Origin: a virus
Taxonomy: Duplodnaviria > Caudoviricetes
IMG/VR virus record: IMGVR_UViG_3300008954_000001
Length of the DNA stretch: 64,000 nucleotides
Direction: 5' to 3' (one strand)
The number at the start of each line of letters is the position of its first letter. Within the stretch, counting starts at the first letter, position 1. Below are positions 31,568 through 57,891 of the stretch, one piece after another. The translations under genes and the position numbers were made by a program. Under the pieces are notes generated by a model. That model made no database searches, was not told the origin of the DNA, and saw only the letters and a list, made by a program, of their open reading frames with translations.

Positions 31568-32884
31568 ATGAGTATTATCAACCAAGCATGGAACCATTTT
31601 GACAGGGTTCGCCAATTGTCGAGATGTGCTCCTTCAAGGATCAAGCAACTCGAAGCCCGACAATGGATGACCATTATTGAAACCCTAACTTCGGCGGGTC
31701 AAACGGCTGACAGCGGTTTCGATGAGGGCCTTCAACCGAATCATGGTGCCATGATGCGGGATGATAATGGACAGGATTACAGCATCCCTTCCATGAATGT
31801 TCAGTTGTGTACCATGATCGACTACCTCCATTGGGGTTCGCAAACCGTTGTGGTTGGGCCAAACATGCAAGAAGCCTTTGCGGATACGGAACTTGGGAAA
31901 GTCCCCGTCAGCCATCTGAAGTTCCCCTTCCCTTGCTACTGGCTTGCCCTCCCCGACAATGAGGACATCCGTATCTATGGTGGCGATCCCGAAGCGGTAG
32001 TTGCCAACTATGAACTCAATGGGGAAGTGCTCAACACTTACGGCACGGGCTGGCACAAGGTAAAGGGAGCCTATATCGTCAACCGCAAAGAGGGCATACT
32101 GGTTCATATGTGGGCACCGGAACCAGAAGACCCTGAGATTCGTAAACGCCTCAACGAGATTGAAAACGGTCCTGCCAAATTGGGTCTAACTGGCAACACT
32201 GGATTGGATTGGGCGCACCAATGGTTCACGATGAGGTTTCTTCCAGATCAAGATTTGGAAGAAACGATCCGAGAGGTTTACACCGATATTGACCGAGAGG
32301 TTTTCGACCCCCACCCCAACGACCCGACTCGCACCTATTGGCAAGAAGCCTGTATGGGTATCCAACATGAAGGGGAAGGCCGAGACATTATGGTTAGTTC
32401 GGCTTGTCGGGTGCTTCGGATCATCATCAATTCTGCCCTATACATGACTTCCCCCAAAGCAGACATTGCTCACATTCGGAGTGTGAAGCGGGACAGACTA
32501 CTCCAACAGGCCCAAGACCTTACGGAGATCGCCGCACGAAACGGGAATCGGAAAGGCCAGCGCAAGCTACGGAGAGAAGCCAAAAGAAAGGCCCAAAAAG
32601 CTGAACGCTACAAATCCCCTGTCGTTTGGATTGGCCCAAAAGTCGAAGAAAAGATGCGTTCTCGAAATGCCACTTCTGACAAGAAAAGGGAACACACCGC
32701 TCGTAAGGGGCATGTCCGAAAAGGTCATTGGCACAAGTTTCTAACGGGCCGCAAACTGGACGATCATGGGAACCCCATCCCTTCAGAGGCCCGTGGCTTT
32801 ATCTTCCATTGGATTCCGCCCCTGTGGTGCGGGGATCTGAACGATAAGAAGGAAGCCCAAACCTACGCCTTCCGAGAAGTTTAG
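31568..32884 (+). CDS. Hypothetical protein (438 aa) with a C-terminal basic GHVRKGHW...WIPP motif
   Basis: RBS AGGAGG, 11 bp after the helicase stop; followed by a terminator. Confidence 0.75.
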   Translation: MSIINQAWNHFDRVRQLSRCAPSRIKQLEARQWMTIIETLTSAGQTADSGFDEGLQPNHGAMMRDDNGQDYSIPSMNVQLCTMIDYLHWGSQTVVVGPNMQEAFADTELGKVPVSHLKFPFPCYWLALPDNEDIRIYGGDPEAVVANYELNGEVLNTYGTGWHKVKGAYIVNRKEGILVHMWAPEPEDPEIRKRLNEIENGPAKLGLTGNTGLDWAHQWFTMRFLPDQDLEETIREVYTDIDREVFDPHPNDPTRTYWQEACMGIQHEGEGRDIMVSSACRVLRIIINSALYMTSPKADIAHIRSVKRDRLLQQAQDLTEIAARNGNRKGQRKLRREAKRKAQKAERYKSPVVWIGPKVEEKMRSRNATSDKKREHTARKGHVRKGHWHKFLTGRKLDDHGNPIPSEARGFIFHWIPPLWCGDLNDKKEAQTYAFREV

Positions 32885-32899
32885 ACACCCTCTCAGAAC

Positions 32900-32938
32900 A
32901 AAGCCCCCCGAAGGATCTGATCCTTCGGGGGGCTTTTT
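32900..32938. terminator. Bidirectional rho-independent terminator
   Basis: Perfect 18-bp inverted repeat AAAGCCCCCCGAAGGATC-t-GATCCTTCGGGGGGCTTT between the convergent 438-aa and sheath genes, with A/T tails on both sides. Confidence 0.85.
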
Positions 32939-32962
32939 ATTACTCTGATTTCTTCGGAGCTA

Positions 32963-35900: not shown

Positions 35901-37882
35901 AGCATCGCAGCAGCGGGGCGGCTTGCGCCGAGCATCGTTCGAGTAGCACCACCATCAACGGTGATAATCATACTGTCCGAGGAACCGTCCACAAAGAAGT
36001 ATGGGCCAGGGTTGCCAAAAGACATCATGGCGGGGGTTTCATCCTTATCCACCAAAGTAACCGTGACAATTTCGCCCACTGGACCCGTAAACAGGTCGGA
36101 ATCGACCGCCTCAAAACGAGCTTGTGGAAGATTGGAGTTTCCAGACTCAAACTGGAGAACCTCAACCAAACCATCGCCCTTATCCGTCAAAGGAGCAGCA
36201 AAAACGGAGTCTCCACCACTATCTGTAATAGAGTAGGTGCCTACTGAAGAAGCCCCTGCCGAAACACAGGTGAGGGTAAAGGTCTCGTCATCAACGCCGT
36301 TGTACCAATGGGTAGCGAACAAGGACATACCTGGCTCAATGGCTTCCGCCAAAGTAACCGTCTTTGTATTAGCATCCACACTGGCAACCGTGACAGCACC
36401 ACGATCCAAGGCATCCTGAACATCATATCCAGCGAAAGCCGTGACCAGTTCGGGGCGGTTTGACCACACATCCCGACGATCATTCGTCATGGCCTTAAAG
36501 GTTGCGGGAGTTAGAGGAAACTCATTCCCCGGTGATCCCACACCATTACCAGAAGTTGGAATACGGCTAAGAGTGAACGCCGTTCGACTCGTCGCCCCAC
36601 CATCCGTAACAGGCTCGCAAAGCTCCATGTGAGTGCGGCAATCCGCCAACTGTGCCGTGATTTGAGTGTCATCAAAAGGCGTGGCGAGTTCCGAAGAGGA
36701 ATCCGCAGCGATAATAGCCGCCGTTCCCCAATGGAGTTTGTCGTCCTGAAGGATGAAGTCACTGCCTGCGAGGTAGTCCATACGACTCGGCTCAAGACCA
36801 CACCGCAACATTCGAGTTACGCCAATGTCGAAAACATAGTCGAAAGTGTCCTGCCAAGAGTTCCAGAAGTAGGTCACCTCTAAAGTTGATCCCGCTGCGG
36901 GAGCAACCGCCAAAGTGATACCACCGTTCTTTCCGTCTACTTCGGAAACCTCAACTTCTGCCCCGTCTACCGTCACTACAACGCCTGTGGTGCTTCCCGT
37001 ATCAAGGGTGCGACCAGCGTTGGTGCCGTCCACAATCGGACGCTGATGGGTAAAGAAGCGGGCATTTCGAGAAGTCTCGTCACCATTGACGATGCCAAGA
37101 GTGTCGTTTGCGAGGCCAGCACCAATCGCAATGCCTTGTTCCGCAGACAAGAGGATAACAGTATCCCCTTCGTTGTTTGTAATGGTGGAAGCCTCCAAGG
37201 AGCCGATTTCTTCAGCATTGATGAAACCGATTACCTGAACGGCTGTCCAAGTACCTTCAGGAAGCTCGAAAGAAGCACTTTCGCCGTCTACCGTCAGTTC
37301 AAGGGTGTCGTTTGTACCTGCTTCAATCTCAAAACCAGCACCTTCGGCACCCGTTCCAGTGATTTCAGCACCGTCACCCGAAACTTGTGCTGACAAGTCA
37401 TCGGTCTGTTGGGTGTCTGTGCGATTGAAGAAGTAGGTGACCATCACCTCATCCTCAAGGGTCGCAGCCACGGCAAGCTCAATAGTGCCGTTGGCACCGT
37501 TGACAGCCAGTACAACGGAAGGTTCTCCATTGATAAACGCTGTCACATCGGCAGGATCGTTAGTGGTTCGGCCATTCCCCTGACCGTCAACAATGGGGAA
37601 ATTACGGACCATAACAACGGTAGCTTCACCGTTGAAATCTCCGAGATTGCCGTCATCGTCAATCACCGCACGGCCAGCCATGTCATCCAAGGGGATGCGC
37701 TGGTCTACGGATTGGGAAGACCCCCGAACAACCTCAAGGCCGTTTCGGGTCAAAATTTCATTTCCAGGACCAATCAACATAGGAATGTTTGTTGATCCCA
37801 AGACTCCTCCAAGGGCGGATTCGTACTCGGTTTCCGTGTACACGCCGGGAGGGGCATAGGGGTTCTTAAAGTCAAAAGCCAT
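32963..37882 (-). CDS. Contractile tail sheath protein, unusually large (1639 aa)
   Basis: N-terminal PYAPPGVYTETE and C-terminal sheath core (FIRVRQGLTT...SVVQIADEVQQQTRDTLEGFIGVKF...CEVESFYQPIFPLLYIILKF). Confidence 0.9.
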   Translation of the reverse strand: MAFDFKNPYAPPGVYTETEYESALGGVLGSTNIPMLIGPGNEILTRNGLEVVRGSSQSVDQRIPLDDMAGRAVIDDDGNLGDFNGEATVVMVRNFPIVDGQGNGRTTNDPADVTAFINGEPSVVLAVNGANGTIELAVAATLEDEVMVTYFFNRTDTQQTDDLSAQVSGDGAEITGTGAEGAGFEIEAGTNDTLELTVDGESASFELPEGTWTAVQVIGFINAEEIGSLEASTITNNEGDTVILLSAEQGIAIGAGLANDTLGIVNGDETSRNARFFTHQRPIVDGTNAGRTLDTGSTTGVVVTVDGAEVEVSEVDGKNGGITLAVAPAAGSTLEVTYFWNSWQDTFDYVFDIGVTRMLRCGLEPSRMDYLAGSDFILQDDKLHWGTAAIIAADSSSELATPFDDTQITAQLADCRTHMELCEPVTDGGATSRTAFTLSRIPTSGNGVGSPGNEFPLTPATFKAMTNDRRDVWSNRPELVTAFAGYDVQDALDRGAVTVASVDANTKTVTLAEAIEPGMSLFATHWYNGVDDETFTLTCVSAGASSVGTYSITDSGGDSVFAAPLTDKGDGLVEVLQFESGNSNLPQARFEAVDSDLFTGPVGEIVTVTLVDKDETPAMMSFGNPGPYFFVDGSSDSMIITVDGGATRTMLGASRPAAAMLVSAKAQYDEAAPDNNTSWTIDAGSNDTLSLSVDGQTISATVGAANAGIADFVTALNAAADAVPPQYTASTMVRNRVEIAAGVFDNIRLHWNDDAEGAETISVDIAAGVYTNVGDLAAAVQAAIEGGITTVVLAGTTDVDDYPTVTVAANVSSQLVFTCARAVNATHGRFSFLSSVAAKADFAANVAGIDTAALADTDQTQILHGPIAKLGDGGNGDSGADSHDRLILRNRIIPGNAGSVNPRGHTGLGLEVLSGTAMSLFGWEGGESAEPRSSATVLPAAVKADVGFGTGQTAVGGGVDTDGQAELTFFDGGVAANPANDTLDLTIDGTSVTVAFTSSDVGTATPLGPVGEPASVLGQISAALVAAGVGALTQEGAAFWIESATQGASSRVAIGEGSANNTIRLTDNESSVREGVSAAALAASMMTESTASWKALFADVAGDGLDQDGAMVMIVTDASGDDYVQIQSPTLGLASSVAVGDCTAFRSGTGLLGTNGDQDNGESGRTGFHVTSDNPVGSGSSGSSVLNDGTGQDGVVGQTYRDEVTGLTFTLLAPLGGGNYSSNATSTFELTCADEITCDANVPIDSIPGVQLFVANTSSVGEGDTATITTHHKGGNEPAIGQSYYASYEYEKRNYSPRLFTKVASIEAAFGSVGATNQSSLASYLMFMNGATVVGVKQVRREEGKVNGSIASYLDAVTELEGLLPGRIRPSVLVPLLEYSHELGTFLSLHVDEQSNIRNQAERTCILGFSAGTQPSEAADLVAQLDMGEDENGMKVSGNPRIRCLYPDMLTVTTTDALGNEKEELVDGRYLAAMMAARQVSPNRDPATPWTGTSFVGTNGVARNLDTVTMNQVASAGVTVCENKPPFIRVRQGLTTDMGNVMTKTPSVVQIADEVQQQTRDTLEGFIGVKFLPQIISQVEGRLAEMYKQMVSAQIVSAYTGIKANISPNDPTACEVESFYQPIFPLLYIILKFNIRSSL

Positions 37883-39754: not shown

Positions 39755-40060
39755 TTACTCCTCTTTCAGAGTACCCGTCAGAGTGATTGTACTGCCCTCT
39801 TTGGTCAGAGAAATCGTCGAGTAGTAGCCGAAAAACTTGCGACCCCCTTGGCCGTAATAAACGAGCTTTCCTCGCCCGTGCTCAACGGTTTCCCCATCCT
39901 CTTCTGGGATCGTAACTTGAATCAAAGGCGGCCCCATCGCTGGAATACCTGCCTTTGAGTCATTGAAAGCGTCCCCACTTCCAATTGTCGGGGCATCGGG
40001 ATCTGGTGGGATGATGCCATCCAAGACATCCAGAAAATCTTTACTACTACTCATCATCAT
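39755..40060 (-). CDS. Hypothetical protein (~100 aa) coupled to the actin-like gene
   Basis: Overlaps the actin-like stop by 14 bp and fills the gap to the next gene. Confidence 0.6.
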   Translation of the reverse strand: MMMSSSKDFLDVLDGIIPPDPDAPTIGSGDAFNDSKAGIPAMGPPLIQVTIPEEDGETVEHGRGKLVYYGQGGRKFFGYYSTISLTKEGSTITLTGTLKEE

Positions 40061-41129
40061 ACTCCTGCATGGCCTGAACCAACATTCCGTAAGCCACAGC
40101 GTTTAGCGGTTCGTTTGCGTGTCGAATTTCCGATACTTCAATGGGGAACTTTCGACGCTTCTTGTTAAAAACAGCCTGAAAGAACTCCATGAAGCCCCCT
40201 GCTAAAGAGGTGCCTCCTGAAACCACAATCGGAATCGGACGGGGCAAAGAAAACTGCCCCTCAATCTGCTTAAAGCGGAGGGCGATTTGATCTAAAGCAT
40301 ATTCAATCAAGTTGCGGTAATAGAAAACAATCGCCTCTTGATCTCGCCCCTCAGGACTGTTCAAATCGATCCCCTGCTCCTTAATCGAGCAGATACGGGC
40401 TTGTGTGGACCCAATGCTTCGAGCGGCCCCACCATCAATCCAATCCCCCCCACGGGCGACCGAAAAGCTCAAACCTTCAATAGTGTTCACAGCCAAGGCA
40501 ATATTGGTCATTCCTGAACCGAAACTGATTCCGATCCCCGAAAAACCTTCCTTAGCAGTCTCGGCATAGATAATAGCCATCGCTTCATTCGAGGCATAAG
40601 GCTCATAGCCACATTCCGTCACAATGCGCTCAAAAACCCCTCGGTGATAAATGATGTCTTTATCTGGCTGATCGATGGGGGCGGCGGGAACCGAAAAGTA
40701 ACAGGCTTCATTTTCTACCCGTGGCTCGCCCAAAACATTCTTTACGAGCAACCCCAAAACATCGAGAGCGTCCGTCTCACCCGAAGAAATCAGGCCCGCT
40801 TGTAGTGGTCGCCGTGCTTCTCGGCCAAAGATATTGGCAGTTTCCAATGCGGGATCACCGATAATGATCAATTCGTCAGGTCGCTCAACGTAGCTCACAC
40901 CCGACAATTTCAACATTTTCTTGGAGTCTGGCGGAAGGTCGAGGAAAGCATCTCGAACTCGACGGGACTCAATCTCACCCGACCCGCTTCTACGGGCCGA
41001 AACGATATTCATTGTCCCGATGTCCAACCCTACGCCCTTAGGGAGCACCTTGGCGGGCTTCTTCGAGGCCGCCTTAGGCTTTGCTTGAGGCTTTTCTTGG
41101 GGCGTTTCTGGGGTTTCTGCGTCAGACAT
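40047..41129 (-). CDS. Actin-fold ATPase (MreB/MamK/ParM superfamily; Mad28-like signature)
   Basis: Phosphate-1 GLDIGTMNI, connect-1 NEAMAIIY, phosphate-2 GISFGSGMT, adenosine IVVSGGTS, connect-2 PLNAVAYG; RBS AGGAG. Confidence 0.85.
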   Translation of the reverse strand: MSDAETPETPQEKPQAKPKAASKKPAKVLPKGVGLDIGTMNIVSARRSGSGEIESRRVRDAFLDLPPDSKKMLKLSGVSYVERPDELIIIGDPALETANIFGREARRPLQAGLISSGETDALDVLGLLVKNVLGEPRVENEACYFSVPAAPIDQPDKDIIYHRGVFERIVTECGYEPYASNEAMAIIYAETAKEGFSGIGISFGSGMTNIALAVNTIEGLSFSVARGGDWIDGGAARSIGSTQARICSIKEQGIDLNSPEGRDQEAIVFYYRNLIEYALDQIALRFKQIEGQFSLPRPIPIVVSGGTSLAGGFMEFFQAVFNKKRRKFPIEVSEIRHANEPLNAVAYGMLVQAMQEYDDE

Positions 41130-43683: not shown

Positions 43684-44136
43684 CTACCCTTCTGAGGGTG
43701 CTTCGGCTGCCTCTCCCATGGCTCCAGGGGTGCTTTGAACAACTACAGTGCCATCTGGATTCACAGACCAGCCTGACCCTTCAGCGATCCCCAAGGATTC
43801 CCCGATTTCTCGGAGCTTGTTTTGCGAGGCGGATTCCAACTGACCATAAGAAGCGATGATCCGAGCCTTGCGAATTTCAATATTCCCAAGCTCCTTCACA
43901 CAATCCTCGCCCGCCATGCGGAAACGGTTCAAAACCGCCATATCCGCTTCGGGTACGGTCAGGGTTTCAGTTGTCGCTGACACGGCTTCTTCCGTTGCTT
44001 TAGCGACATCTTCAGGTGCAGATACCGAAGCGGTTTCAGTACCATCAGCTTCGGCGGTTACGGTTTCCTCAACTGCTTCGGTGGCTGTCTCAACTGCACC
44101 ATCATCAGTATTCTTGGACTTTTTCTTTCCAAACAT
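43684..44136 (-). CDS. Hypothetical acidic coiled-coil protein (150 aa)
   Basis: RBS AGGAG; fills the gap between neighbours. Confidence 0.7.
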   Translation of the reverse strand: MFGKKKSKNTDDGAVETATEAVEETVTAEADGTETASVSAPEDVAKATEEAVSATTETLTVPEADMAVLNRFRMAGEDCVKELGNIEIRKARIIASYGQLESASQNKLREIGESLGIAEGSGWSVNPDGTVVVQSTPGAMGEAAEAPSEG

Positions 44137-44202
44137 TATTGAACTCTCCTATCGGGTAAAAGCCAAGCACCAGCTTCGGTGCGCCTTACTTTACCCCCGT
44201 CC

Positions 44203-44216
44203 ATAGAGGGCTTACT
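44203..44216 (-). promoter_or_regulatory. Candidate late-promoter motif AGTA-N6-CTAT
   Basis: Variant of the recurring motif upstream of the 150-aa/neck operon. Confidence 0.3.
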
Positions 44217-44221
44217 GAAAC

Positions 44222-44455
44222 TCAAGGACAAATTTCGTTATGTATGGCATCAACATCCTTTTCAAGAGAATCTGCCGTGCGTTGAAGTTCGTCCACAATA
44301 GCTCTTTGCTCTAACACTACCCGTCGTGTTTCCGCCCTTGCGGATGGCACGATCTCAGCTTTCGGGGCTGGTGCGGGGCTTGTCTCACGGAAAGAGAAAA
44401 CGCAAGACAAAACCAAGGCGAAGAAAATGGCCCCGTATATTCGCTTACCTTTCAT
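44222..44455 (-). CDS. Small membrane/lipoprotein-like protein (77 aa)
   Basis: Basic N-terminus, hydrophobic stretch ending in VLSC, Pro-rich linker, coiled coil. Confidence 0.55.
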   Translation of the reverse strand: MKGKRIYGAIFFALVLSCVFSFRETSPAPAPKAEIVPSARAETRRVVLEQRAIVDELQRTADSLEKDVDAIHNEICP

Positions 44456-44726
44456 GGTTCATCTCCGCTTTAATCTCGTCTACTCGGAGCTTCACATAAC
44501 CCATCGCTTCGGACAGGCGTTCTAAAGCTACCGTATTTGATTGGAGAGAGGCCAAAACCGAAGCGTTGTCGTCCGACAACTGCTTCACTTGAACTTGGAG
44601 ATTCTGCCGTTCGACCTCCGCCGTCGCCAACTGAACTTCCAGCCTAACCGCCCATAAAATAAGGGGGATCACCAAGATCGCTAAAATCTTGCTGGCTGTG
44701 TCAATCAGTGCGTGGCTGTTACTCAC
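44445..44726 (-). CDS. Single-TM coiled-coil protein (~93 aa), holin/spanin-like
   Basis: GTG 44726 with AAGGAG RBS (the track start is 44756); TM ILAILVIPLILWAV followed by a heptad coil. Confidence 0.55.
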   Translation of the reverse strand: MSNSHALIDTASKILAILVIPLILWAVRLEVQLATAEVERQNLQVQVKQLSDDNASVLASLQSNTVALERLSEAMGYVKLRVDEIKAEMNHER

Positions 44727-44740
44727 AAGAATCTCCTTCG

Positions 44741-44770
44741 GGGGGGCTAATTTCAACCTCTAACGGTAAT
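44741..44770 (+). promoter_or_regulatory. Candidate phage promoter GGGGGGCTAA-N14-GGTAAT
   Basis: 27/38 nt identical to the 29321 copy without gaps; upstream of the plus-strand island. Confidence 0.55.
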
Positions 44771-44811
44771 CCCATTGAGGATGCAGGCCCGTCCAAACAA
44801 TAGGCGGCCCT

Positions 44812-44825
44812 ATAGAGAGGGAACC
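44812..44825 (-). promoter_or_regulatory. Candidate late-promoter motif GGTT-N6-CTAT
   Basis: Variant of the recurring motif upstream of the 93-aa gene. Confidence 0.3.
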
Positions 44826-45545
44826 ATGAATGTAAAAGCAATAGCCAAACCACCGATGGATGAACGGTCACAACTTTTTTCCAAATGGACAACGGAGTTT
44901 GTTCGCAAGCATCCCGATATGTTCGAGCTTTTCTGCTCACGGGCAAAGCGGGCCTACTTCACGGCTCGTGACTCTCGGATCGAAAACCTCCCTTGTGTCT
45001 GGTTCAATATGGGCCTGTCTTACATTTTAGCTTGGGAGTACGGATATGACATCCCTTCTCGTATCCTTGCGGGAGCGCAAAGCGACTTCTACTCCTTCAA
45101 TTACTCGATACACTCTCAAAATGAGGGTAAAGCCACCTCATGGGCTGACGAAGCGAACTCCAAGTACCCTGTCACCGTAAAGGGTTTGATTGCGGAAATC
45201 GAAAAGGTGCTCACCGAAGCGCAGAAAGAAGCTGTTGATGAGTACGATCACGATCCAGAGGACTACCTTCGGTATCACCGCTCCAACCCCCACGAAGAAC
45301 ACCCTTGGGGCGAAGACTGTGTCGCCTTGATTCGAGCATGGTGCCAAGCAGATGAGTTTGAGTGGTTCATGGTCCACAGAAACGTCAAAGAAGCCACTGA
45401 ATCCGCCATCTCCGAAAACTTGTGGGAAATGACCATGTGGGAGGATGACAGTACCGCCGCCCCCATCGCTCAAGCGGCTCGTGAAGCCTTGGCTTCGCAG
45501 ATGGGTAAATTCATCGAAGGCGTAAAGGAGTCCTCTAATGGATAA
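44826..45545 (+). CDS. Hypothetical protein (~239 aa)
   Basis: ATG 44826 with GAGAGGGA RBS; overlaps the next gene. Confidence 0.7.
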   Translation: MNVKAIAKPPMDERSQLFSKWTTEFVRKHPDMFELFCSRAKRAYFTARDSRIENLPCVWFNMGLSYILAWEYGYDIPSRILAGAQSDFYSFNYSIHSQNEGKATSWADEANSKYPVTVKGLIAEIEKVLTEAQKEAVDEYDHDPEDYLRYHRSNPHEEHPWGEDCVALIRAWCQADEFEWFMVHRNVKEATESAISENLWEMTMWEDDSTAAPIAQAAREALASQMGKFIEGVKESSNG

Positions 45546-45894
45546 AGCAAAAGAAGCCGTTCAAAACATTCTAAAAGTTTGTACCGCTCTGGAACTTCAA
45601 AGACCTCCCGCAAATGCGGAGAGTGTCCTTGTTTCAGCGGTCAACACCATCGACCTCTACCTAACAGGTAAAGACAAGCGAGACGCTGCCACAGAAATAA
45701 TGGACAAAGAAGCAGCCGCCGCTTTGATCGAGCACAATTCTTTTGATTGGATTGTGTACCTCTCAAACGGAGGCTACTCACGACTTGTGATCTCCCCCTA
45801 CCAAGAGCCTAACAAAATGTGGCTCACAGGGGGTCCACATGCCGGGTACGAAGAGATTCTATCGAAGTGGCAGGAAATACATTCCGAACACTAA
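45538..45894 (+). CDS. Hypothetical protein (118 aa)
   Basis: AAGGAG RBS; 8-bp overlap with the previous gene. Confidence 0.7.
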   Translation: MDKAKEAVQNILKVCTALELQRPPANAESVLVSAVNTIDLYLTGKDKRDAATEIMDKEAAAALIEHNSFDWIVYLSNGGYSRLVISPYQEPNKMWLTGGPHAGYEEILSKWQEIHSEH

Positions 45895-46268
45895 TAGTAT
45901 TTGACCCGACCTCTTTCCACGAGAAGGTCGTTCAAACACTCCCCCGTTTCAGGCAAGTACATCTCCACCAAGTAGCGGCCATACTTCCCTGCTTTATTGG
46001 TGGACACGAAAAACTTGGTGCCGACAGGGAACTCTTCTTTCAAGTCTTCCAGTAGTTTGAGGCCAGCCTTTTTCTCGGAAGCTGTCACCCCCGCCTTTCG
46101 GCGGATTTCCGGCGCATCTATCCGAGCAAGACGGTACTTGTTCACGACATGGACGCTCTGCCCAAGGTCCACGCTCAACTCCACCGTATCCCCATCTACC
46201 CAACGAACAATCGTCGCCACATACTTGTTTTGATCATACATATAAACCCTCATCAATGGTGTCTGCAT
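45891..46268 (-). CDS. Thermonuclease (staphylococcal nuclease/SNase) family protein
   Basis: RWVDGDT, RLARIDAPE, GKYGRYL and NDLLVERG motifs. Confidence 0.9.
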   Translation of the reverse strand: MQTPLMRVYMYDQNKYVATIVRWVDGDTVELSVDLGQSVHVVNKYRLARIDAPEIRRKAGVTASEKKAGLKLLEDLKEEFPVGTKFFVSTNKAGKYGRYLVEMYLPETGECLNDLLVERGRVKYY

Positions 46269-46293
46269 AGCCTCCCCATTGAGAGGTAGGCGA

Positions 46294-46569
46294 ATGTCGA
46301 ATTGCGCTCACTGCCACGGTTTCGGGGAACTGCTCATCTACCGTTATGGGCGAGTTCTTCGTGTGTACTGTGACTGCCCTGTTGGGGATCAAAGAGTGGA
46401 GAAGATCATTTCTTCTTTCGACCGCCCGCCCGCCTTTTCTTGCGAGAGGCTTTCGGACCATCCGACTTTGCTTGAGTATTACGGGGTGGGGGAAACTCCG
46501 TCCAAGGTTGCTTCCAAGTCCGAAGTGCTTTCCGACGCTCCTGACGGGAAACACGATCCAAAAAAGTAA
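46294..46569 (+). CDS. Small Cys-rich Zn-finger-like protein (~91 aa)
   Basis: CAHCHGFG...CDC; RBS GAGAGG; its 3' part overlaps def antisense by 164 bp. Confidence 0.45.
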   Translation: MSNCAHCHGFGELLIYRYGRVLRVYCDCPVGDQRVEKIISSFDRPPAFSCERLSDHPTLLEYYGVGETPSKVASKSEVLSDAPDGKHDPKK

Positions 46570-46987
46570 TCCCATTGAGGTGGTCTATTTCGTGTTGGAC
46601 GCAGACGGCCAAAGGTAAGCCATCAAACCGACGAACATGCCGTTTCATATTGAGATCAAGATACGCCACATCAACCCAACGGGGTCGGGCGATTTCTATG
46701 AACAGCCCCGGAAAAGAAAGACAGCCCTCACCGAACCAAGTTTTCTTTTTAGAAGACGCTTCTACGACAGGGTTGATTAGGACCAATGGCTCTTCGTCAA
46801 AGCGTTCTTGAACCAAACATACTCGAAGATGGACTCCGACTTGGGGGGCGGCGATCCCGATCCCCTGTTCTTCTCGCATAGTCTTCTTCAAAGATTCGAT
46901 GAAAAGCAAAAGCGAATCGTCCATCCGCTCTACGGGTTCGCATCTTTTAGTAAGCCGCTCATCAGGCCAGTAGGCTAAAGGAAGCAT
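46406..46987 (-). CDS. def: Peptide deformylase
   Basis: All three PDF motifs: GIGIAAPQVG, EGCLSFP, QHEIDHLNG; RBS GGAGGA. Confidence 0.95.
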   Translation of the reverse strand: MLPLAYWPDERLTKRCEPVERMDDSLLLFIESLKKTMREEQGIGIAAPQVGVHLRVCLVQERFDEEPLVLINPVVEASSKKKTWFGEGCLSFPGLFIEIARPRWVDVAYLDLNMKRHVRRFDGLPLAVCVQHEIDHLNGITFLDRVSRQERRKALRTWKQPWTEFPPPRNTQAKSDGPKASRKKRRAGGRKKK

Positions 46988-47054
46988 GTTATCCTCCCAA
47001 CCTACTGAAACTATAAATGGTAAAGCCTAATATGGGGTCTAAGAAACCGTCCAA

Positions 47055-47156
47055 TGGCGGTGAGGGTGGGAATTGCACCCACGGTCGAGGGTCGCTCGAC
47101 CCGGCATAACCATGCTTTACCTCTGGTCACCACCTTTTGACCAAGGTCGCCCCACC
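47055..47156 (-). tRNA. Non-canonical tRNA(Ser)-like RNA (102 nt, encoded CCA, long variable arm, aberrant anticodon loop)
   Basis: Acceptor GGTGGGG/CCTCACC followed by G73 and CCA; D-stem ACCT/AGGT; T-arm GTGGG-TGCAATT-CCCAC; extra 7-bp arm GGTCGAG/CTCGACC; anticodon arm has an 11-15-nt loop instead of 7. Confidence 0.65.
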
Positions 47157-47162
47157 GAGAGA

Positions 47163-47519
47163 TCAGCCGCCCTTTACAAACCGAGCGACCATCTGATTCC
47201 CCCCAGAGCCAGAGCCAGAGACAAGGTGGAGTTGTTCTTCCACGATAATCGGACTCGCACTCTCAGGGTCGGTTCCTGACATCATTGCAAATATGGTAGG
47301 GGCTAAGGAGTATTCAAGATCAATCTGATACGTATACGCATATCGACCGATATCATCTTCTACGGCGACCATTTCTGTACCCGCCGCAACCAACACCACC
47401 TTTGTCCCATTCGCATCGAAAGAAAAGATTTCGATTTCTGGATCGGGCACAATCAGTGGAGCATTGAAGCCATCAAAGAACGCAACCGTGAAGGTATATG
47501 TGTCGCCAACTTGAGCCAT
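47163..47519 (-). CDS. Small Ig-like/beta-sandwich virion-type protein (118 aa)
   Basis: Alternating beta pattern (YTFTVAFFD...GRYAYTYQI) resembles the N-terminal domain of the adaptor at 49020..49913. Confidence 0.6.
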   Translation of the reverse strand: MAQVGDTYTFTVAFFDGFNAPLIVPDPEIEIFSFDANGTKVVLVAAGTEMVAVEDDIGRYAYTYQIDLEYSLAPTIFAMMSGTDPESASPIIVEEQLHLVSGSGSGGNQMVARFVKGG

Positions 47520-47549
47520 GTGAACCCCTACCTTTATTACAGCAAGAGG

Positions 47550-47563
47550 ATAAGGCTTTTATC
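47550..47563 (-). promoter_or_regulatory. Candidate late-promoter motif GATA-N6-TTAT
   Basis: Upstream of the 118-aa / tRNA-like / def unit. Confidence 0.35.
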
Positions 47564-47636
47564 GCACTTGATCGCACGAATCGTTTGCTACCCCGCCCAC
47601 AGGTAAAGTCTCTTATTACCGAAGGACGGGTTTCTC

Positions 47637-47864
47637 TTGTCATACAACATACCCAACCACAAAAAAGAGTACGAGGGGGCGGCGAGGTGGCGTACCATCG
47701 GTTGGGTAATTGTAAGTCTAATCGCCCTTGTGGGGTTGATATGGCTCATTTTACACATCACTTTGAACGACGACTATGTGCGGCTGTGTGTCGAAACTTG
47801 TGGGGCGGGGCAGGTGGAACAAGTCACAGCTTTTCATTGTAAGTGTCGAGAAAACGTCCCATAG
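47637..47864 (+). CDS. Small membrane protein (75 aa) with a Cys-rich C-terminus
   Basis: TM WVIVSLIALVGLIWLILHI; CVETC...CKC; TTG start with AAGGA upstream. Confidence 0.55.
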   Translation: MSYNIPNHKKEYEGAARWRTIGWVIVSLIALVGLIWLILHITLNDDYVRLCVETCGAGQVEQVTAFHCKCRENVP

Positions 47865-47866
47865 AA

Positions 47867-47897
47867 GGGGGGCTAAACCTACCTGTCTTTCAGTAAG
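47867..47897 (+). promoter_or_regulatory. Candidate phage promoter variant GGGGGGCTAA-N15-AGTAAG
   Basis: Same upstream box as the other copies; precedes the ATPase-GNAT gene. Confidence 0.4.
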
Positions 47898-47932
47898 GGA
47901 CGGGTAGTATGAGGGGAACAAAAGGATACGCT

Positions 47933-49081
47933 ATGTCAATACTCGATCTCTTCGGGGAGCAAACTAAAAAGGAGCCTGTTGTCTCTCATGTTCAGGTAGA
48001 CGAGTTTACGAAACACGCCTCTGCCGCTTTTGACTATGAGTTCGATGGCACCATTTCTTTTGAGCCTTGGGCGGTGCCTCAGGATTTGCCAGAAACCTTT
48101 ACGATTGGTGCTGTTGTAGGCCCAAGCGGAACAGGTAAGTCCTTATTTCTGAACAACTTTGGAAAGCCTGTGCAGCACACATGGGATCGGGATCGAGCGA
48201 TTGTGTCTCATTTCAAGACCCCAGAAGAGGCTCTACAACGTCTTTCCGCTGTGGGTCTAAACTCAATCCCCTCTTGGATGAAGCCGTACCATGTGCTCTC
48301 CGTAGGGGAGTCTTTTCGGGCAGATTTGGCTCGGAGTATGGGGGACGGTGCGGTCTTCGATGAGTTTACTTCGGTCGTTGACCGAGAAACGGCGAAAAGC
48401 TGTTCCAGATCCCTCAAACGGATCGCAACGAATAAAGGGTGGACGAATATCATAGTGGCAACATGCCACGAAGATATACTTCCTTGGCTTCAACCAGATT
48501 GGGTGTTTAACACGGTGGATGGTTCCCTCACCGTGGGGAGGTGGCTTCATCGACCGACCATCAAACTGGACGTCCACCGATGTCGCCATGATGTATGGCC
48601 CCTTTTTGCGTCGGCTCACTATCTGACGGCAGAAATCAGCAAATCCTCACATTGCTACGTGGGGCTGTGGGAGAACGCTCCTGTGGTTTTCGGCTCGGTG
48701 CTATGTTTCCCCCACGCAGTCGTGAAAGGCGGCTGGAGAGAGCACAGGACGGTCGTGCTGCCCCAATATCAGGGCATGGGTATCGGCCCCCGCTTTTCAG
48801 AGATGCTTGGGGAGATTTACCTTGAAAGGGGAGGCCGCTTCTTTAGTCGCACAGCCCACCCTCGCCTTGGTCAGTACCGAGAAGCCTCCCCCAAATGGAA
48901 AGCTACCGCCCACAGCTATCAGCTACGGACAGACCAGAAAGACCGACCTGAAGAGGAGTTCTTCCACAACTGGAAGCACGACACGAACCGTGTCTGTTGG
49001 GCGCACGAATATCTGGGATCTATAGAAAGTTCCGAGGGCCAAGAACACCTCGACCCACATGCGGTCCAAAAGCCGACCTGA
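47933..49081 (+). CDS. ABC-type ATPase fused to a GNAT acetyltransferase (COG2401-like)
   Basis: Walker A GPSGTGKS, signature LSVGE, Walker B AVFDEFTS, H-loop TCH; C-terminal RTVVLPQYQGMGIG acetyl-CoA motif; ATG 47933 with AAAGGA RBS. Confidence 0.85.
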   Translation: MSILDLFGEQTKKEPVVSHVQVDEFTKHASAAFDYEFDGTISFEPWAVPQDLPETFTIGAVVGPSGTGKSLFLNNFGKPVQHTWDRDRAIVSHFKTPEEALQRLSAVGLNSIPSWMKPYHVLSVGESFRADLARSMGDGAVFDEFTSVVDRETAKSCSRSLKRIATNKGWTNIIVATCHEDILPWLQPDWVFNTVDGSLTVGRWLHRPTIKLDVHRCRHDVWPLFASAHYLTAEISKSSHCYVGLWENAPVVFGSVLCFPHAVVKGGWREHRTVVLPQYQGMGIGPRFSEMLGEIYLERGGRFFSRTAHPRLGQYREASPKWKATAHSYQLRTDQKDRPEEEFFHNWKHDTNRVCWAHEYLGSIESSEGQEHLDPHAVQKPT

Positions 49082-49913
49082 TACCAACACCGTACTTTGG
49101 TTGGCGTAAACCCCGCATAATCTTGACGGTCATCATCTTGGCTTCCGTTGCTTTATCGAACTGCATGTCCGAAGAGGACTTCATACTTTCGTACTTGCTG
49201 GATTTTTCCAAGGTTAAACTTACACCCCCGATGGAGTAATCAAACTCATCGGCGGTCCAGTTCGCCATCAATGCGAAGCAGGCGTGGGAAATAGCTCCCC
49301 ATAGGACGCAAGTTCGCCAAACGGGTTTACTGCCTACCAGCTTTGTCAGGTTGTTGAGTTCTTCTGTTTCAGGCGGGAACATATTCCACCAATCCAACGC
49401 CCGTTCCAAATACTCAAATAGCTCGGCATCTTCCCAAATCTGACCAAACACTCGGTTGTAGGTGCCGATAGCCCCTTCATGTTCGGGCGGCCTGAAATGA
49501 TAGAACTTATCGGGGTTTTGATCCCTCAAAAGCAATCGGAGCTTATCGATCATGGATTGCTCCTGATCTGTATAAGTGTTCGCTATTAGAGCCGACGACT
49601 CCACCACAGCGAAGCGCATAACGACCTGTTGGATGGGACTTCCCGCAAACTCCCGAAAAGACCAGCGGATTCGATATTCTCCTGGCTCTGCGCTCGGTGG
49701 GATCAAGAGAGCCGCATAGTATTCCCCGACTGCGGGGTTCACGGGAGTTCTCGCAGCGTCTCCGATCAAGACCTCTTCATCGGTATCGGGGTCGTAGAAA
49801 TAAATGGCGAAGGAAATCGAGGCGGCGTTTGAAACGGCCCCGCTATTGTTTGTCAGAAAGATATCTAAGTCGCCACGGCTCAGTTCTTGTCCTGGTGAAA
49901 ATGCAATAGCCAT
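49020..49913 (-). CDS. Head-tail adaptor (connector) protein with an N-terminal Ig-like domain (297 aa)
   Basis: MIDKLRLLLRD...WEDAELFEYLERAL...FDYSIGGVSLTLEKSSKY helical adaptor pattern. Confidence 0.6.
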   Translation of the reverse strand: MAIAFSPGQELSRGDLDIFLTNNSGAVSNAASISFAIYFYDPDTDEEVLIGDAARTPVNPAVGEYYAALLIPPSAEPGEYRIRWSFREFAGSPIQQVVMRFAVVESSALIANTYTDQEQSMIDKLRLLLRDQNPDKFYHFRPPEHEGAIGTYNRVFGQIWEDAELFEYLERALDWWNMFPPETEELNNLTKLVGSKPVWRTCVLWGAISHACFALMANWTADEFDYSIGGVSLTLEKSSKYESMKSSSDMQFDKATEAKMMTVKIMRGLRQPKYGVGIRSAFGPHVGRGVLGPRNFL

Positions 49914-51180: not shown

Positions 51181-54100
51181 TTAGGCATCAAACAAGAACT
51201 GATCGGCAACGATACACTTAAGTTCCATAGCCTTAGTTCCGGTATCAGTCGTAGTCTCAGTTTGACCGTCCAAGAAAAGAGGTGCGCCAGAAGCGTCTCT
51301 CTTTTGCTGTGAAATCATCCGACCAACCAAAACAGCAACACCATCGGTGATTCCCAAGGTGTCATTGTCAGGCAGGACATTAGTCACACGGCCAGCTTCC
51401 ATAGCCGACAAGAACACATGGTCCCCGTCTACCAAGGTCATCCCACTTTCAGCGAGAACCGAGATGCAAGAACGCTTAGGCATCATGTGGATTTTACCCA
51501 ACAAGGATGCTTCATCAAGCGCACCTTCCATGGCCTGACCAGCAAGTTGCCAGTCGTTGACTCGTGCTTTCGCCATCTTACCGGAGTGGTCTACCAATGC
51601 GAGTGCATCGATATTTCCATCCGCTACGAGGTTCAAACAGTTATCAATGAGTTTGCTCTGAGTCAGAGAACCGACCTTGATGTCATCCTCAAAGGAACCT
51701 TCATAGGTGAACCGACCTGTGATTGGATCATAAGACAGACCACTTGTTGAACCTGCCCCGTCGCTTTGAGCATCATTGACTTCCGCACCAAACAAACCTT
51801 TGATGTTTGCACCAGTAACGCCAGTGAATACCCAAGCACCAGTGGTGGCATCGTAAGACAATCCACCAAAAGACACATCGGCAACTTCCTCAACATAGCC
51901 CTCTTGACCTTCTACACCGGATTCAGCCACGAGTGGTGGCACATCAGCCGCAGTCAGACTTTGCATCGCACGGACATCACCAACATTGAACGACTTCAGT
52001 CGATTGGTCATGGTTTCGCTGCCAACGGTAGCGTCCAGCACCTTCTCAAGCACAGCAACCCGAATAGTGTTGTCTTCAGCCGTTCCAGCGAACACCTGAG
52101 CGACACCTGTGAGGTCACCATTCTCGTCAACCTCACCGCCATCCTTGTGAAGATCCTCTACGAGAATATCCACATGGATTTCAGTAGCCTTGACCCGTGT
52201 AAGGGTATGCGTGTTGACATTCTCAGAGACAGCGAAAGCAAGTGAGCCATAAGTCTTTTCAGACTCAGCAGCATCACCAGCGTCCATCAGTGCTTTCAGT
52301 CCACCCACACCATCCGTCATCTGGAAAGTGTTGGTAGGATCAACCTGAAGCGCAAACTGACCGACACCCAAAGCGAGTTTCTGGAGAACCTCCGCACTCA
52401 CCTCTTCGCCGGTCTCCTCGTCGTAAACCGCTGCCTGATAAGTAACTGCGGATTGACCGTCCACACTACCATACTGAATGGAGTTAGAACCAGAAGCCAA
52501 GGCTTTCAGTCCGTAAGTGCCATCTGTAAGTGGGAAAGTGCTATCAGCATCGATGTAAAGACCGAACTGACCTGCGCTTAGAGCAAGTTTGCCCGGAACC
52601 CCTTCAGACTGAACTACCGCATCCTGATCATCCGCACCCGCATACTGAATGGCGTTACCGCCAGACACATCGCCACGAATCATTCGATTCGTAACACGAG
52701 TCAGAGTGATCACACCCTCACTGAACGCAAGACCACCATGAGCAGTGTCGCCCTCGGTAGCTACAACAGCATCAGCCGCACTGAAAGTACCCCAAACATC
52801 ATGGTTTGTTGGCAACACAGCCGTAAGAGCACCCGTAGAGGGGGCATAGGCCAAGCTACCAAAATCAGCCGCATCCACTGTATAGCCTTCAGGTGCATCT
52901 GCACTTGAAACACTAAGCGAGTACGAAGCGTATAGACCGTCCACACCAGCAGTCAGTGGAATCTGAGTACCAGACTCCTCCGATGCGGATGTTGGGGGAA
53001 CATACCCATTGTAGCTCTCGTTAGCTGCAACCCCACCAGCACCGTCAGCAAAACCGTCCATGAAGGCCGTATTGCTGGTCATAATATCGTACCCATTCTC
53101 ACTGAGCCATAAGACTCCAGATCCGGGACTTCCCAAACTCAACCACTGAACCCCAGCAGCGTGACCGCTGTCGTAATCAGCTTGTTCTTGTGGGTCGCCC
53201 GATCCTGAGCCAGCACTTACAGCAGCCGCATACGAATCAATCGTAAGACTGAGAGTTTTGACATTATTCGCAATCAATTCATCGATGGCGTTTCCGTCAG
53301 CGACAGTGGCAGTGTGAACACGAGCAGCCGTGAAGTACATGGTTCCCGAAGTAACCGACGCATTTGGATCTTCATCCAAACCCGCAGTGCTATGACGAAC
53401 AGGCGTATTGCTACCTACTGGCAAGTATTCCGAAATACTCGAAATACCACCACGGAAGGTACGAGCTTCAAGATCAAGCAAAGCACCTGCTGTGGTTTCT
53501 GGAGTAGTAATCTGTCCAAATCTCCAGTGACCACCACGAATCGCTGGATCGCCGTTTTCAAGGGCATCCCCCTCAGAGGAATCCAGAGGGTCCATTACCC
53601 AAAGCATTGCTGCATCGTGCAACCCTCGCTCAACACGAAGTCCAGCGAAGAAGGGGTCAATATCAGCCTGTGAGCCGTCAGCTTTTCGTGCCAGGTGAAT
53701 CACATTGTCTTCAAGCGTAGTCACCTCTGTATTTACAGCGGTCTGAGTGCCATTTACGACGAGATCACCCGTTAGGGTCATGTTTCCAGCGACCGCAAGG
53801 CCACCACTCAGATTCAAACCACGAGAGGATGAAATCCTGTTCTGGTCATCAGCCGCATCGGATTGCTCGCTGCCAGCGTCTTGTCCGGCGATTGACACCG
53901 AGCTACTTCCCGCAGGGGGGTTAGCTGGATCAATCGACGTGTCTTCGTTTTCCGAATAGAACATCGAGTTGACAGGTTCGCCTGGATCAGCGGCTTGACC
54001 ATGGCTTACGCCTTGGTCAAATTGCGGATTTCCTTGCCACATATCATACTCAGAAAACTCGCTGCCGAACAACCAAGTCGAGAAATCGGCCTCACCTGAA

Positions 54101-57100
54101 AGCTGAAAGGCTTGTCCAATAGAATAGCCAAGCTCATAGTCGCCTTGTGCTGGCTGTGCGGCCACCATGTACTCAATAGTAAAGGTACGATCTTCTACCG
54201 GAATCGCTGTAAGATCCTCAAAAGGTGCCTCATACTTCCAAGTCGAAGGCCCCTCATTTGTCGTAAGCGTTCCAACAGCGGGGCTGCTTACAGGGTTGAG
54301 GTATCCACCATTAGCTTCTGCGAGGCTGCCCTCAACAACTGTACTGGCAGGTATGGCATCTACACTTACAAGAGCCAACATCGGCACTTCAAGTGCATAA
54401 GTCTCAGACCCTTCAGCGAGGTTGTCCTCGATCCGAACCCGACCCTCATTAATCGTGAGATTACCTGTCAGGTCAGTGACACCTTCAACGGTGAGATCAC
54501 CAGTCAACTCAGTCCGACCAGTCAACTGAAGGAGAGTGTAGGCGTTATCGTTGCCCGTCGCACCCGCTGCCAACACCTGAAAGCTCGCACTCCCCTGTGA
54601 TGGAAGCATGATGCGCTTGTCGGCCTTCAAAGACTCAAGAGTAACAATGTCGCCGTCAGCCTTGATGGACTTCTGCGTCACAATGGAGTGCCACTGGGCA
54701 TCACCAGCGTTTGCTGGTGTACCAAAGGTAGCCAAACCACCGACACCCAAACTACCAGCGAGGTCTAAACCACGGGTAGAAAGCATGTTGTGAACAGCAT
54801 CATCAGCAGGACGAGCACCTTCCATGATTGGATCGAATGCAACGAACTCTTCGCCGCTTAATCCGTTATCAGCTTCCGTAGTTGCGATGCCTTCAGCATC
54901 CGAATAAAGAAGCTCACCACCACCAATGACGTTCCCGCCCTCATCGTATTCTAAGGGCATTGTAGCCTGAACACCGTTGTTTGCTTCCAACACTGGAACA
55001 TAGAAGCCATGGATACCTGTGCCGCCTTCATTCGGACGGATCTTCAAGCTGTGACCAGCTTGGAGAAGCCCGTCTGCATAAACACTACCGAATTCAGCAT
55101 GAACCTGAGCACCGGATGCGCCTACGAACAAACCGCCATCGTGGATGTTCAAATGACCATCTGAATTCCCATGGGAATACATATCAAGGTCGCCCTTGAG
55201 GTACAGGTGGTGATTGTGGCCCTCATTGTCCAGTCGCTTGTCCAACTTGAACAAGAACTCAGAACCGTCCCAAATAGCATCTACACTCTTGGAGACTTGA
55301 AAGTTATCGGCTCGGAAACCGCCGCTGCTGCTTATGGTTTCCCGTGCTTCAATCCAACCAACAACCAACATATCTGCGGCGGCAGTCATGGGCCAAGCGG
55401 TTTCATCAAGAGAGTCAAACTCTCCTAAACGGATTTTCTGAGTCTCACCAGTCCGAACATGGAAGCCAGGAGCTTTCAGTTCCATAGCACTGTCGGCTGC
55501 GACCCTTACAAGGTCACCTTTAACTTGTGCTCCTACGGAGGATTCTACGTTCACACCAATCGAAGATTGGAGGTCGATTTTCTCTGCCTCAACCTTTAGG
55601 TCGCCCGAAAGTCGAGTGTCGCCTTTAAGGTCAAGATAAGAAGCATTGAGCTTGATTTCGCTGGCCTCTAAGTCAACACGATCAATCGTAGCGTAAGTCT
55701 CTTCCAAAATCATGGAAGGATCGACCTGTGCCAAAAGACCGGGATCAAACGTAGCTGATTGAGTCGTAGTAGACCCATCCCCAGAGTAAACGTAGGTCGC
55801 AGTCAGAGGGATCTCCCGATAGGAAGAATCTTCTTCCATCAACCGACGAAGATCCTTATCTGCTTCGTAAATCCAATCATCGCCCTGCGTTGTTACCCAT
55901 CCCACACTGGGATCGTTATCAACCGTAAAGCTCTCAAGAACCATCGTCTGCACACCGATTGGAGCGCCAAGGTCGTATTGGATCGAAGCGGGGAAAGAAT
56001 CCGCCAGTTCGCCTGAAATCTTGACGTATCCATTATCAGCAGTGTTCTCCGCCGTATCCACTCTAAGTTTTCCGTCAGCAACCATGAACTCATTGAGTCG
56101 GGCGTTGTTGGAAATGTGGACAAAGCCAGCGGCCATCGACATTGAACTGAGAATAGTGTCGTCACCATCTCTCAAAGAAATGATTGCGAGCATTTCCTCT
56201 TGGGCCAGCGCATCCGCATGTTTGACGTAAAAGTCGCCATCAACCGAAGTGGTTGGGGCGGCAATCGCAACAGACTTACGAATAGCTTCATTTTCCGCAA
56301 TAATAGCGACACCAGCTACGCCTCTACTAAATTGGTCATCAAAAAGAGTGACCACATCTGCCATCTGGGTCTCTGAATGACCATCGGTGTAAACCATCGT
56401 AATGATAAGCTCACGCTGCCAAGAGGCGGCTTCTCGTAGACCTCGAAGATCCGCTTGGAAGGCTGCCCCATCCTCTACCATAGTAGAGAAAATGATGGTG
56501 CCATCGCCATTGTCAATAAACGCAGCAGATCCCGAATAAGCAACCGCCGGGGCAGATTGCTGAGAATAGCCATCAGGAGAGGTGGCGGGGAACGCTTCTT
56601 GAACATTGACCAAGAGTTGCACATCACCAGGGGTTTCTCCGTCTCCGATTTCGCCAGCCAAGCCAGCACCATCAAGAGTAATCAATCCCATAAGGTTGGT
56701 AAGAGCAACATCCTGTGTGAAAATCGCCTGTGAGTTAGCCAATAAAATCTGACTGCCTGCGCCAGACACATTCAAAGTAATAGCGGAAGACGCTGCACTT
56801 GTATCAAGAGCAATAGAATTAGCCGCACTCTGAATGATTGCGTCAGCACTTAGAGACAACTGCGCCGCAGAAGCGTTGCTTGACTCCAAATTCAACTGAT
56901 CCGCTGTAATAGTTACATTGGTATCGGTGATGGAAGTCGATGCCGCATTTCGGTCATAAGTGAAACGCCCATCGCCTAATGTGAGGCTTTTGGGGTTTGC
57001 GCTTAAGATAGCGTCATCCGCCTCAGATACAGTTTCATCCGTAAAGGAAAAGAATGGAATCCTTTTACCCATCGTGGTTTGGTCTGCACCAATGATGTTC

Positions 57101-57711: not shown

Positions 57712-57891
57712 AATTAATGACTCCTTTTTGAGTAAGAATTGTGAGGCATAGGTTTCGCACCGTGCGAACCTACGCATGTTTGTTTTCGTGTGTTGTCTGT
57801 TCCTTAAGATCGAGGTTTAGAGATCGGAAGCCGTAGCTTCGTGTCTCTGCAACTCACCATCTGTCTATTTCAGACCCAGAACACGACTTAG

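Follow-up and report, generated by a model that had tools for sequence, protein, structure and literature searches.

A probable tRNA-Ser pseudogene upstream of def in the accessory island of a huge marine phage

Results

The 64,000-nucleotide stretch of DNA analysed here, referred to as the window, sits in a 281,784-bp marine metagenome scaffold, and the same sequence was found elsewhere on contigs of 244 kb to 324 kb that are identical at the locus. The window contains giant ORFs, gives almost no PHROG or Pfam matches and encodes a strongly conserved actin-family (Volactin-like) protein. This 360-aa protein, encoded at 40047-41129 on the minus strand, matched the Pfam family Volactin (PF25216) over its full length (E 1.6e-72), and proteins 51-86% identical to it were found on more than 100 IMG/VR contigs, many of them of 200-450 kb. 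The actin-family protein is a marker of a large group of huge phages. Because of the giant ORFs, the scarcity of PHROG and Pfam matches and the presence of the actin-like protein on so many large contigs, the window is assigned to a huge phage from a marine and environmental group that is large and poorly described. One 297-kb record, IMGVR_UViG_3300025141_000016 (G002; L110, L124), has two actin-like copies, 69% and 65% identical to the query, which lie approximately 160 kb apart on opposite strands.

Five giant ORFs are located on the minus strand of the window at positions 2-10804, 13833-18716, 21278-25825, 32963-37882 and 51181-57777; their products range from 1,515 to more than 3,601 aa and, where tested, showed essentially no PHROG matches, which is typical of structural or injected proteins of huge phages. 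Sub-threshold matches to the Rfam His_leader family were obtained on both strands at 32799-33000 (34 and 27 bits against a cut-off of 49, E 0.11 and 2.8), in the gap between a 438-aa and a 1639-aa gene and overlapping the ends of both. This is probably a structured intergenic hairpin region and no real His leader.

A hypervariable accessory island (approximately 44137-49019 of the window) lies between a 297-aa gene (49020-49913) and a 150-aa gene (43684-44136). In 20 other relatives, none of which has a tRNA there, the corresponding interval varies in length from about 0.8 kb, devoid of this set of genes, to more than 6 kb. The island of only one relative, IMGVR_UViG_3300027499_000009 (locus L179), has tRNAs, a tRNA-Asn and an intact tRNA-Ser. 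In this phage the homologue of the 297-aa gene is followed by tRNA-Asn and tRNA-Ser(GGA), and then by the homologues of the 150-, 454- and 174-aa genes, the actin-like gene and the 394-aa gene, in the order and on the strand of the window, which places the intact tRNA-Ser in the same variable interval. A search for def in four related huge-phage records gave no match; def, an SNase-like gene and an ATPase-GNAT gene are lineage-specific cargo of the island.

The locus under study is found in this island on the minus strand, where a 118-aa gene of unassigned function (47163..47519) is followed by a tRNA-Ser-derived element of 102 nt (47055..47156), which we read as a probable tRNA-Ser relic or pseudogene, by a conserved spacer or leader of 67 nt (46988..47054) and by def, encoding a peptide deformylase (46406..46987; Pfam PF01327, E 5e-45). 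The stop codon of the 118-aa gene and the element are separated by 6 nt, and 67 nt lie between the element and the def ATG at 46987, in agreement with the location given in the initial annotation. The 118-aa protein, which has no Pfam or PHROG match, was used as an anchor of synteny: among 5.8 billion proteins only two other clusters carry it, with 95% and 85% amino acid identity (hereafter the 95% and the 85% relative), and no relative of it was found in IMG/VR. The contigs of both relatives share the gene order of the window (297-aa, 382-aa, 118-aa, def and onward), and their flanks have 85% and 80% DNA identity. The gap between the 118-aa gene and def measures 97 and 90 nt in the two relatives versus 175 nt in the window, and the 67-nt leader aligns without gaps in all three lineages, with most columns identical.

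Other occurrences of def were also inspected. Its more distant homologues (50-55%) were found in different surroundings that lack a tRNA-like spacer, and a scan of JGI metagenomes for def gave only the known contig and a 36%-identical def on an unrelated contig. On unrelated def-carrying loci of IMG/VR (L001:4440-4806 and L036:4096-4396, among others), tmRNA genes or tRNA arrays are present 1-2 kb downstream of def, which suggests that this gene is often carried along with RNA genes related to translation.

The minus-strand sequence at 47055-47156 agrees with the one initially described, including the acceptor stem, the T arm, the extra arm and the GCCA end. The 5' strand of the acceptor stem, GGUGGGG (47150..47156; element nt 1-7), pairs with nt 92-98 with a probability of 0.87-0.93, and the 3' strand, together with the discriminator G and CCA, occupies 47055..47065 (nt 92-102). 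The resulting stem, GGUGGGG/CCUCACC, has 7 bp, one of them G.U, and is followed by the unpaired discriminator G73 and an encoded CCA. The T arm, GUGGG-UGCAAUU-CCCAC (47066..47082; nt 75-91; pair probability 0.96-0.98), directly abuts the 3' acceptor strand; its 5-bp stem and its 7-nt loop UGCAAUU are of correct size, and U54, C56 and A58 are in place, but position 55 is G and not U. The long variable (extra) arm, which is a feature of type II tRNAs, comprises 6-7 bp and a 5-nt loop (47083..47101; nt 56-74; pair probability 0.97-0.99). Upstream of it, a 10-bp bulged hairpin (47119..47147; nt 10-38) is made of the old D arm and an inverted copy of the 5' half of this arm, and a short hairpin, GCAU-GGUU-AUGC (47104..47115; nt 42-53; pair probability 0.5-0.6), represents a remnant of the anticodon arm. 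Core position 8 is C instead of U8, and the D loop is 2 nt shorter than that of canonical tRNA-Ser at the A14/G15 alignment point; both C8 and G55 had been reported initially and were borne out by the sequence. A repeat search showed that the element is present as a single copy in the window, and a promoter and terminator scan detected neither kind of signal at the element. No U tract follows the acceptor hairpin, unlike a typical intrinsic terminator.

The minimum free energy (MFE) structure of the element has -45.6 kcal/mol (z = -2.4) and keeps the acceptor stem, the T arm and the extra arm at pair probabilities of 0.87-0.99. In this structure nt 10-38 form the 10-bp bulged hairpin (pair probability 0.67-0.94), and nt 42-53 form a weak hairpin of 4 bp with a 4-nt loop. 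Apart from one extra G, nt 28-38 repeat nt 10-19 in reverse complement, which accounts for the 10-bp hairpin, and as nt 10-19 are engaged in this pairing, the canonical D stem has a probability of about 0.05; an inverted duplication of 10-14 nt is thereby predicted to sequester the D arm. The secondary structure first drawn for the element, with a 4-bp D stem and an anticodon stem of 5-7 bp, is a minor one in this analysis, as it accounts for approximately 5% of the ensemble and lies 5-11 kcal/mol above the MFE. When nt 20-60 were scanned exhaustively, no stem of 5 bp closing a 7-nt loop with U33 was detected; what is left of the anticodon arm is a 4-bp stem with a 4-nt loop or, alternatively, 3 bp with the 6-nt loop UGGUUA. 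The absence of a normal anticodon loop, on which the initial annotation had insisted, was therefore confirmed, there being no 7-nt loop and no serine anticodon within one. Every helix that the element retains (acceptor, T stem, variable arm and the new 10-bp hairpin) is perfectly paired.

The window was scanned for frames composed of a 7-bp acceptor, an adjacent T arm of 5 bp and 7 nt, and NCCA, and compared with 100 dinucleotide shuffles of it. The bare frame appeared in 8 of the 100 shuffles and, when U54, C56 and A58 were also demanded, in none (0/100), and the window holds exactly one frame of the latter kind, the element. A covariance model built from the element alone (R1) was searched in 28 whole records of related huge phages. 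The best match (40.9 bits, E 3.8e-7) was a 90-nt gene at L179:1501-1590 of IMGVR_UViG_3300027499_000009, which ARAGORN identifies as a normal tRNA-Ser(GGA), beside the tRNA-Asn mentioned above. A second model (R2), derived from six tRNA-Ser genes that carry a shared 25-mer, gave one significant match in the window with filters off, and this was the element (36.6 bits, E 6.7e-7). The test is partly circular, as the pattern by which these genes had been retrieved came from the T arm and acceptor of the element itself, whereas the R1 search is not circular. R2 aligned the GCAU-GGUU-AUGC hairpin to the anticodon arm with a shortened loop. With the same reservation about R2, the two matches show that the kinship with serine tRNAs proposed initially is real.

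The L179 tRNA-Ser(GGA) and the element are identical at 69 of the 90 positions of the whole tRNA-Ser. In the 5' acceptor strand 6/7 nt are those of the canonical tRNA-Ser, the change being A5 to G, which yields the G.U pair; the T arm has 15/17 identical nt, and the 3' acceptor strand with GCCA is identical throughout (11/11, 7/7 for the strand itself), as it is to canonical phage tRNA-Ser genes. The top half thus agrees at 32 of 35 nt, and in the last 30 nt there are two differences only, U55 to G and A59 to U. Both RNAs also have G73-CCA, the D-loop motif UGGUC and a long variable arm, and they occupy the same interval on the same strand. The element differs from the L179 gene in its length, which exceeds that of the gene by 12 nt, in the absence of a 5-bp/7-nt anticodon arm and of a serine anticodon, and in C8, G55, U59, a shortened D loop, a D arm locked in the 10-bp hairpin and a variable arm of unrelated sequence.

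The 25-mer of T arm and acceptor was found on 13 IMG/VR contigs, and in all 13 ARAGORN identified a tRNA-Ser, with the anticodons GGA, UGA and AGA. The variable-arm sequence of the element, on the other hand, is unlike that of every tRNA-Ser found in IMG/VR and in the GTDB genomes. Neither the locus nor the element gave a blastn match among 50,697 phage records, even at E 10; the exact pattern of T arm plus acceptor had no match in IMG/VR, and that of variable arm plus T arm had one chance match in a coding region in IMG/VR and none in the GTDB genomes. R1 found nothing significant in 24 further loci (20 syntenic intervals and four on the def side). On these sequence comparisons, the element is homologous to canonical phage tRNA-Ser genes and is closest to tRNA-Ser(GGA).

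Standard detection tools did not recognise the element as a tRNA: ARAGORN, which had been proposed for checking it, detected 0 tRNA or tmRNA genes in the whole 64-kb window, and Rfam had no match at gathering scores and no match from the tRNA clan even at E<=10 over the whole window. When a 401-nt slice was searched, the best sub-threshold Rfam match was tRNA-Sec (19.3 bits against a cut-off of 47, E 0.25), and the second was the tymovirus tRNA-like element (15.7 bits). A tRNA-Sec (RF01852), which resembles the element in a long extra arm, an extended D stem and a serylation by SerRS that is putative in the element, should have an 8-bp acceptor, a 6-bp D stem with a 4-nt loop, a UCA anticodon and a score of at least 47 bits; it was rejected on its score of 19.3 bits, on an acceptor of 7 and not 8 bp and on the absence of a UCA loop. 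A tymovirus-type tRNA-like structure was rejected on both score and anatomy. A tmRNA, for which the G3.U70 alanine identity, a tag reading frame and pseudoknots are expected, was likewise rejected, as the ARAGORN tmRNA search remained empty even when relaxed and the 3-70 pair is U-A, not G3.U70.

Compared with a canonical elongator tRNA, the element has the acceptor and the discriminator but lacks U55 of the T loop, the U8/A14/D-arm core and the anticodon arm, and it stays below the score thresholds. It is not a tRNA with one insertion either, since none of 2,790 single deletions of 1-45 nt led to an ARAGORN call. Two indels together, the removal of 10 nt (18-27) and the addition of 1 nt to the short loop, restored a default call, and the RNA so restored is of type II and has GGU as its anticodon; C8, G55, U59 and the D loop shortened at A14/G15 are differences that come on top of these two indels. 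Relaxed ARAGORN (80% threshold) proposed a tRNA with a 14-nt 'intron'; its Thr and His solutions were set aside as arbitrary.

In both nearest relatives the tRNA-like body of the element is missing and does not align. The 85% relative has GGCGAGG-UGGC-UCUCGCC-GCCA at this place, which corresponds to canonical tRNA-Ser positions 1-11 joined to positions 66-76; this remnant (L086:2993-3015) is a 7-bp acceptor microhelix whose 4-nt loop, UGGC, represents canonical positions 8-11, followed by GCCA. In the 95% relative only the 3'-strand-like CCCCACCGC..CCA is left and the 5' strand of the acceptor is gone; a 5-bp hairpin newly formed in this remnant (L085:3358-3387), GUAGC/GCUAC, overlaps with what was the 3' acceptor strand. 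The acceptor hairpins of the window and the 85% relative differ only by changes that preserve pairing, namely a double change from U3-A70 to C3-G70 and a change from G5.U68 to A5-U68. ARAGORN reported no tRNA on any of the relatives' contigs. Copies of the window phage in other samples were identical across the element, and contigs from four DNA runs showed no variants or joints across it. Among the public runs listed as containing this sequence there was no RNA run. The collection of homologues, a step already recommended for this locus, thus brought to light two nearest relatives with identical neighbours in which the body of the element was lost through two different deletions, and at the sequence level both were shown to retain, at this place, remnants of the same gene left by deletion.

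Discussion

The data presented here suggest that the element is probably a tRNA-Ser pseudogene without a function of its own. It has tRNA ancestry, it has lost essential features and it is not conserved in close relatives; the acceptor stem, the T stem, the variable arm and the GCCA end are intact, and a usable anticodon arm is absent. We propose that the common ancestor of the three close lineages would have carried a working tRNA-Ser between the 118-aa gene and def, which would have become dispensable and then have been lost three times independently. In the window phage the loss would have occurred by an inverted duplication plus small indels, in the 85% relative by an internal deletion of positions 12-65, and in the 95% relative by removal of the 5' strand and the body. 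The window copy would then be the least reduced of the three, dead for decoding and passively co-transcribed with its neighbours, and its tidy helices may be explained because the inactivation was recent and brought about by few indels rather than by many point mutations. The initial annotation had considered that a canonical tRNA with a 7-nt loop in relatives, together with random decay of this copy, would speak for a pseudogene; a canonical tRNA-Ser(GGA) with such a loop was indeed found in a related phage, in the same interval and on the same strand, so that this expectation was largely borne out.

The presence of tRNA pseudogenes in jumbo phages has a precedent, as Xanthomonas phage XacN1 was reported to carry one per terminal repeat (PMC5852040). 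The XacN1 pseudogenes and the element have in common that they are tRNA-derived sequences of a huge phage that have lost features needed for decoding. In contrast to XacN1, the element is a lone copy in an accessory island and not part of a tRNA array, three lineages display three states of decay, and its helices are perfectly paired.

Three observations weigh against a pseudogene. The retained helices are perfectly paired, whereas some of them should have been disrupted by a long neutral decay. The pairing-preserving changes in the acceptor hairpin of the 85% relative hint that the hairpin itself may be selected, although these changes may date from the time when both tRNAs worked. Finally, an intact tRNA-Ser was found in the interval of one relative only, and 20 others have no tRNA there. 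Because of this, and because the immediate neighbours differ, strict orthology between the L179 tRNA-Ser and the element loci is likely but not proven.

The second of these observations bears on whether the dead tRNA has been kept as an RNA processing or stability signal in the transcript of the 118-aa gene and def, which we regard as unlikely. Under this explanation, tRNA end-processing enzymes would still act on the intact acceptor-T minihelix and its GCCA; RNase P cleavage at G1 and 3' trimming at CCA would cut the operon mRNA or, alternatively, the hairpin would protect the upstream 3' end, and the short hairpins of the relatives would serve likewise. Recognition by bacterial RNase P depends on the stack of acceptor and T stem together with a 3' RCCA, and the enzyme cleaves some non-tRNA substrates, phage RNAs included. 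Known tRNA-like substrates of this enzyme are the C4 RNA precursor of phages P1 and P7, plant mitochondrial t-elements and mascRNA, in which a helix of the acceptor/T type followed by RCCA is embedded in a longer transcript; by analogy, the element may resemble them. In all three lineages a hairpin comes immediately behind the stop codon of the 118-aa gene and precedes CCA and the conserved 67-nt leader; within the element, stability and conservation are highest in the acceptor and T stems; and the acceptor hairpins of the window and the 85% relative differ only by pairing-keeping changes, one of them double. However, the 95% relative lost the 5' strand of the acceptor and has just an unrelated 5-bp hairpin, possibly by chance, the pairing-preserving changes could be a legacy of the working tRNA, and the missing U tract argues against a typical intrinsic terminator.

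Even less probable is that the element is an exapted tRNA-Ser derivative, charged by SerRS but not decoding, that acts as a seryl donor, as a decoy for nucleases or as a modulator of the ribosome or EF-Tu. This was the reading put forward initially, of which the absence of a normal anticodon stood; the further step, that the RNA is selected and chargeable, found no support. In tRNA-Ser, identity resides in the variable arm, G1-C72, G2-C71 and G73, and the anticodon is ignored (PMC9976931). Of the elements named in the initial annotation, G1-C72, G2-C71, G73, U3-A70 and the long variable arm are present in the sequence, and its top half, variable arm and CCA are intact, so that charging could be envisaged given that serine identity is independent of the anticodon and relies mainly on the variable arm (PMC9976931). 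The best precedent is provided by the staphylococcal non-proteinogenic tRNA-Gly species, peptidoglycan donors in which the G18/G19-U55/C56 elbow contacts are missing and which, once charged, serve outside the ribosome (PMC4574755). These tRNAs, unlike the element, have a normal cloverleaf, a UCC anticodon loop, genus-wide conservation and known partner enzymes (Fem).

Against a chargeable RNA, the lesions are not limited to decoding features, as the initial annotation had it, and also affect universal core positions (U8 to C, U55 to G and the D loop). E. coli SerRS was reported to recognise tRNA-Ser by its tertiary shape (PMC9976931), and since the D arm is predicted to be sequestered and the core is mutated, C8, G55, the short D loop and the sequestered D arm should disturb this shape and hinder charging. 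Furthermore, the form seen here occurs in one phage lineage only, the closest relatives having deleted it, and no partner enzyme that would use an aminoacyl-tRNA was identified nearby. A variant of this explanation, in which the acceptor/T minihelix, G73-CCA and the long variable arm would be kept for serylation by the host SerRS, the element would be a phage-made seryl carrier or off-ribosome decoy and the microhelix of the 85% relative its minimal version, appears equally doubtful.

It is highly improbable that the element is a working but unusual decoding tRNA of type II, reading with GGU or GGA, whose extra 10-14 nt are removed or tolerated. The 'intron' of 14 nt proposed by relaxed ARAGORN and the default call obtained after taking out 10 nt and adding 1 nt are compatible with it, but the site of the intron would be non-canonical and devoid of known splicing motifs, the removal would still leave the anticodon loop one nucleotide short, C8 and G55 would persist, and the relatives deleted the gene. 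As for a cloverleaf-like fold that arose by chance without tRNA ancestry, general tRNA models do score the element at chance level only, but this explanation is effectively refuted by the homology to tRNA-Ser (the R1 and R2 matches, E ~1e-6 in both directions), by a 3' segment of 30 nt that departs from canonical tRNA-Ser at only two positions and by the failure of any shuffle to reproduce the full frame.

In summary, what appeared as a striking tRNA mimic becomes, under the pseudogene reading, a tRNA-Ser gene caught in decay, and its value is mainly that of a clean negative: intact-looking acceptor and T helices are no evidence of a new class of RNA. If the element were chargeable after all, this would be the first case of a chargeable tRNA derivative without an anticodon encoded by a phage, and would matter for tRNA biology and for the conflict between phage and host. 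At one locus, three related huge marine phages display three end states of the gene, one rearranged, one collapsed to the acceptor hairpin and one reduced to the 3' strand, which documents the fast gain and loss of tRNA genes in the hypervariable island of this phage group.
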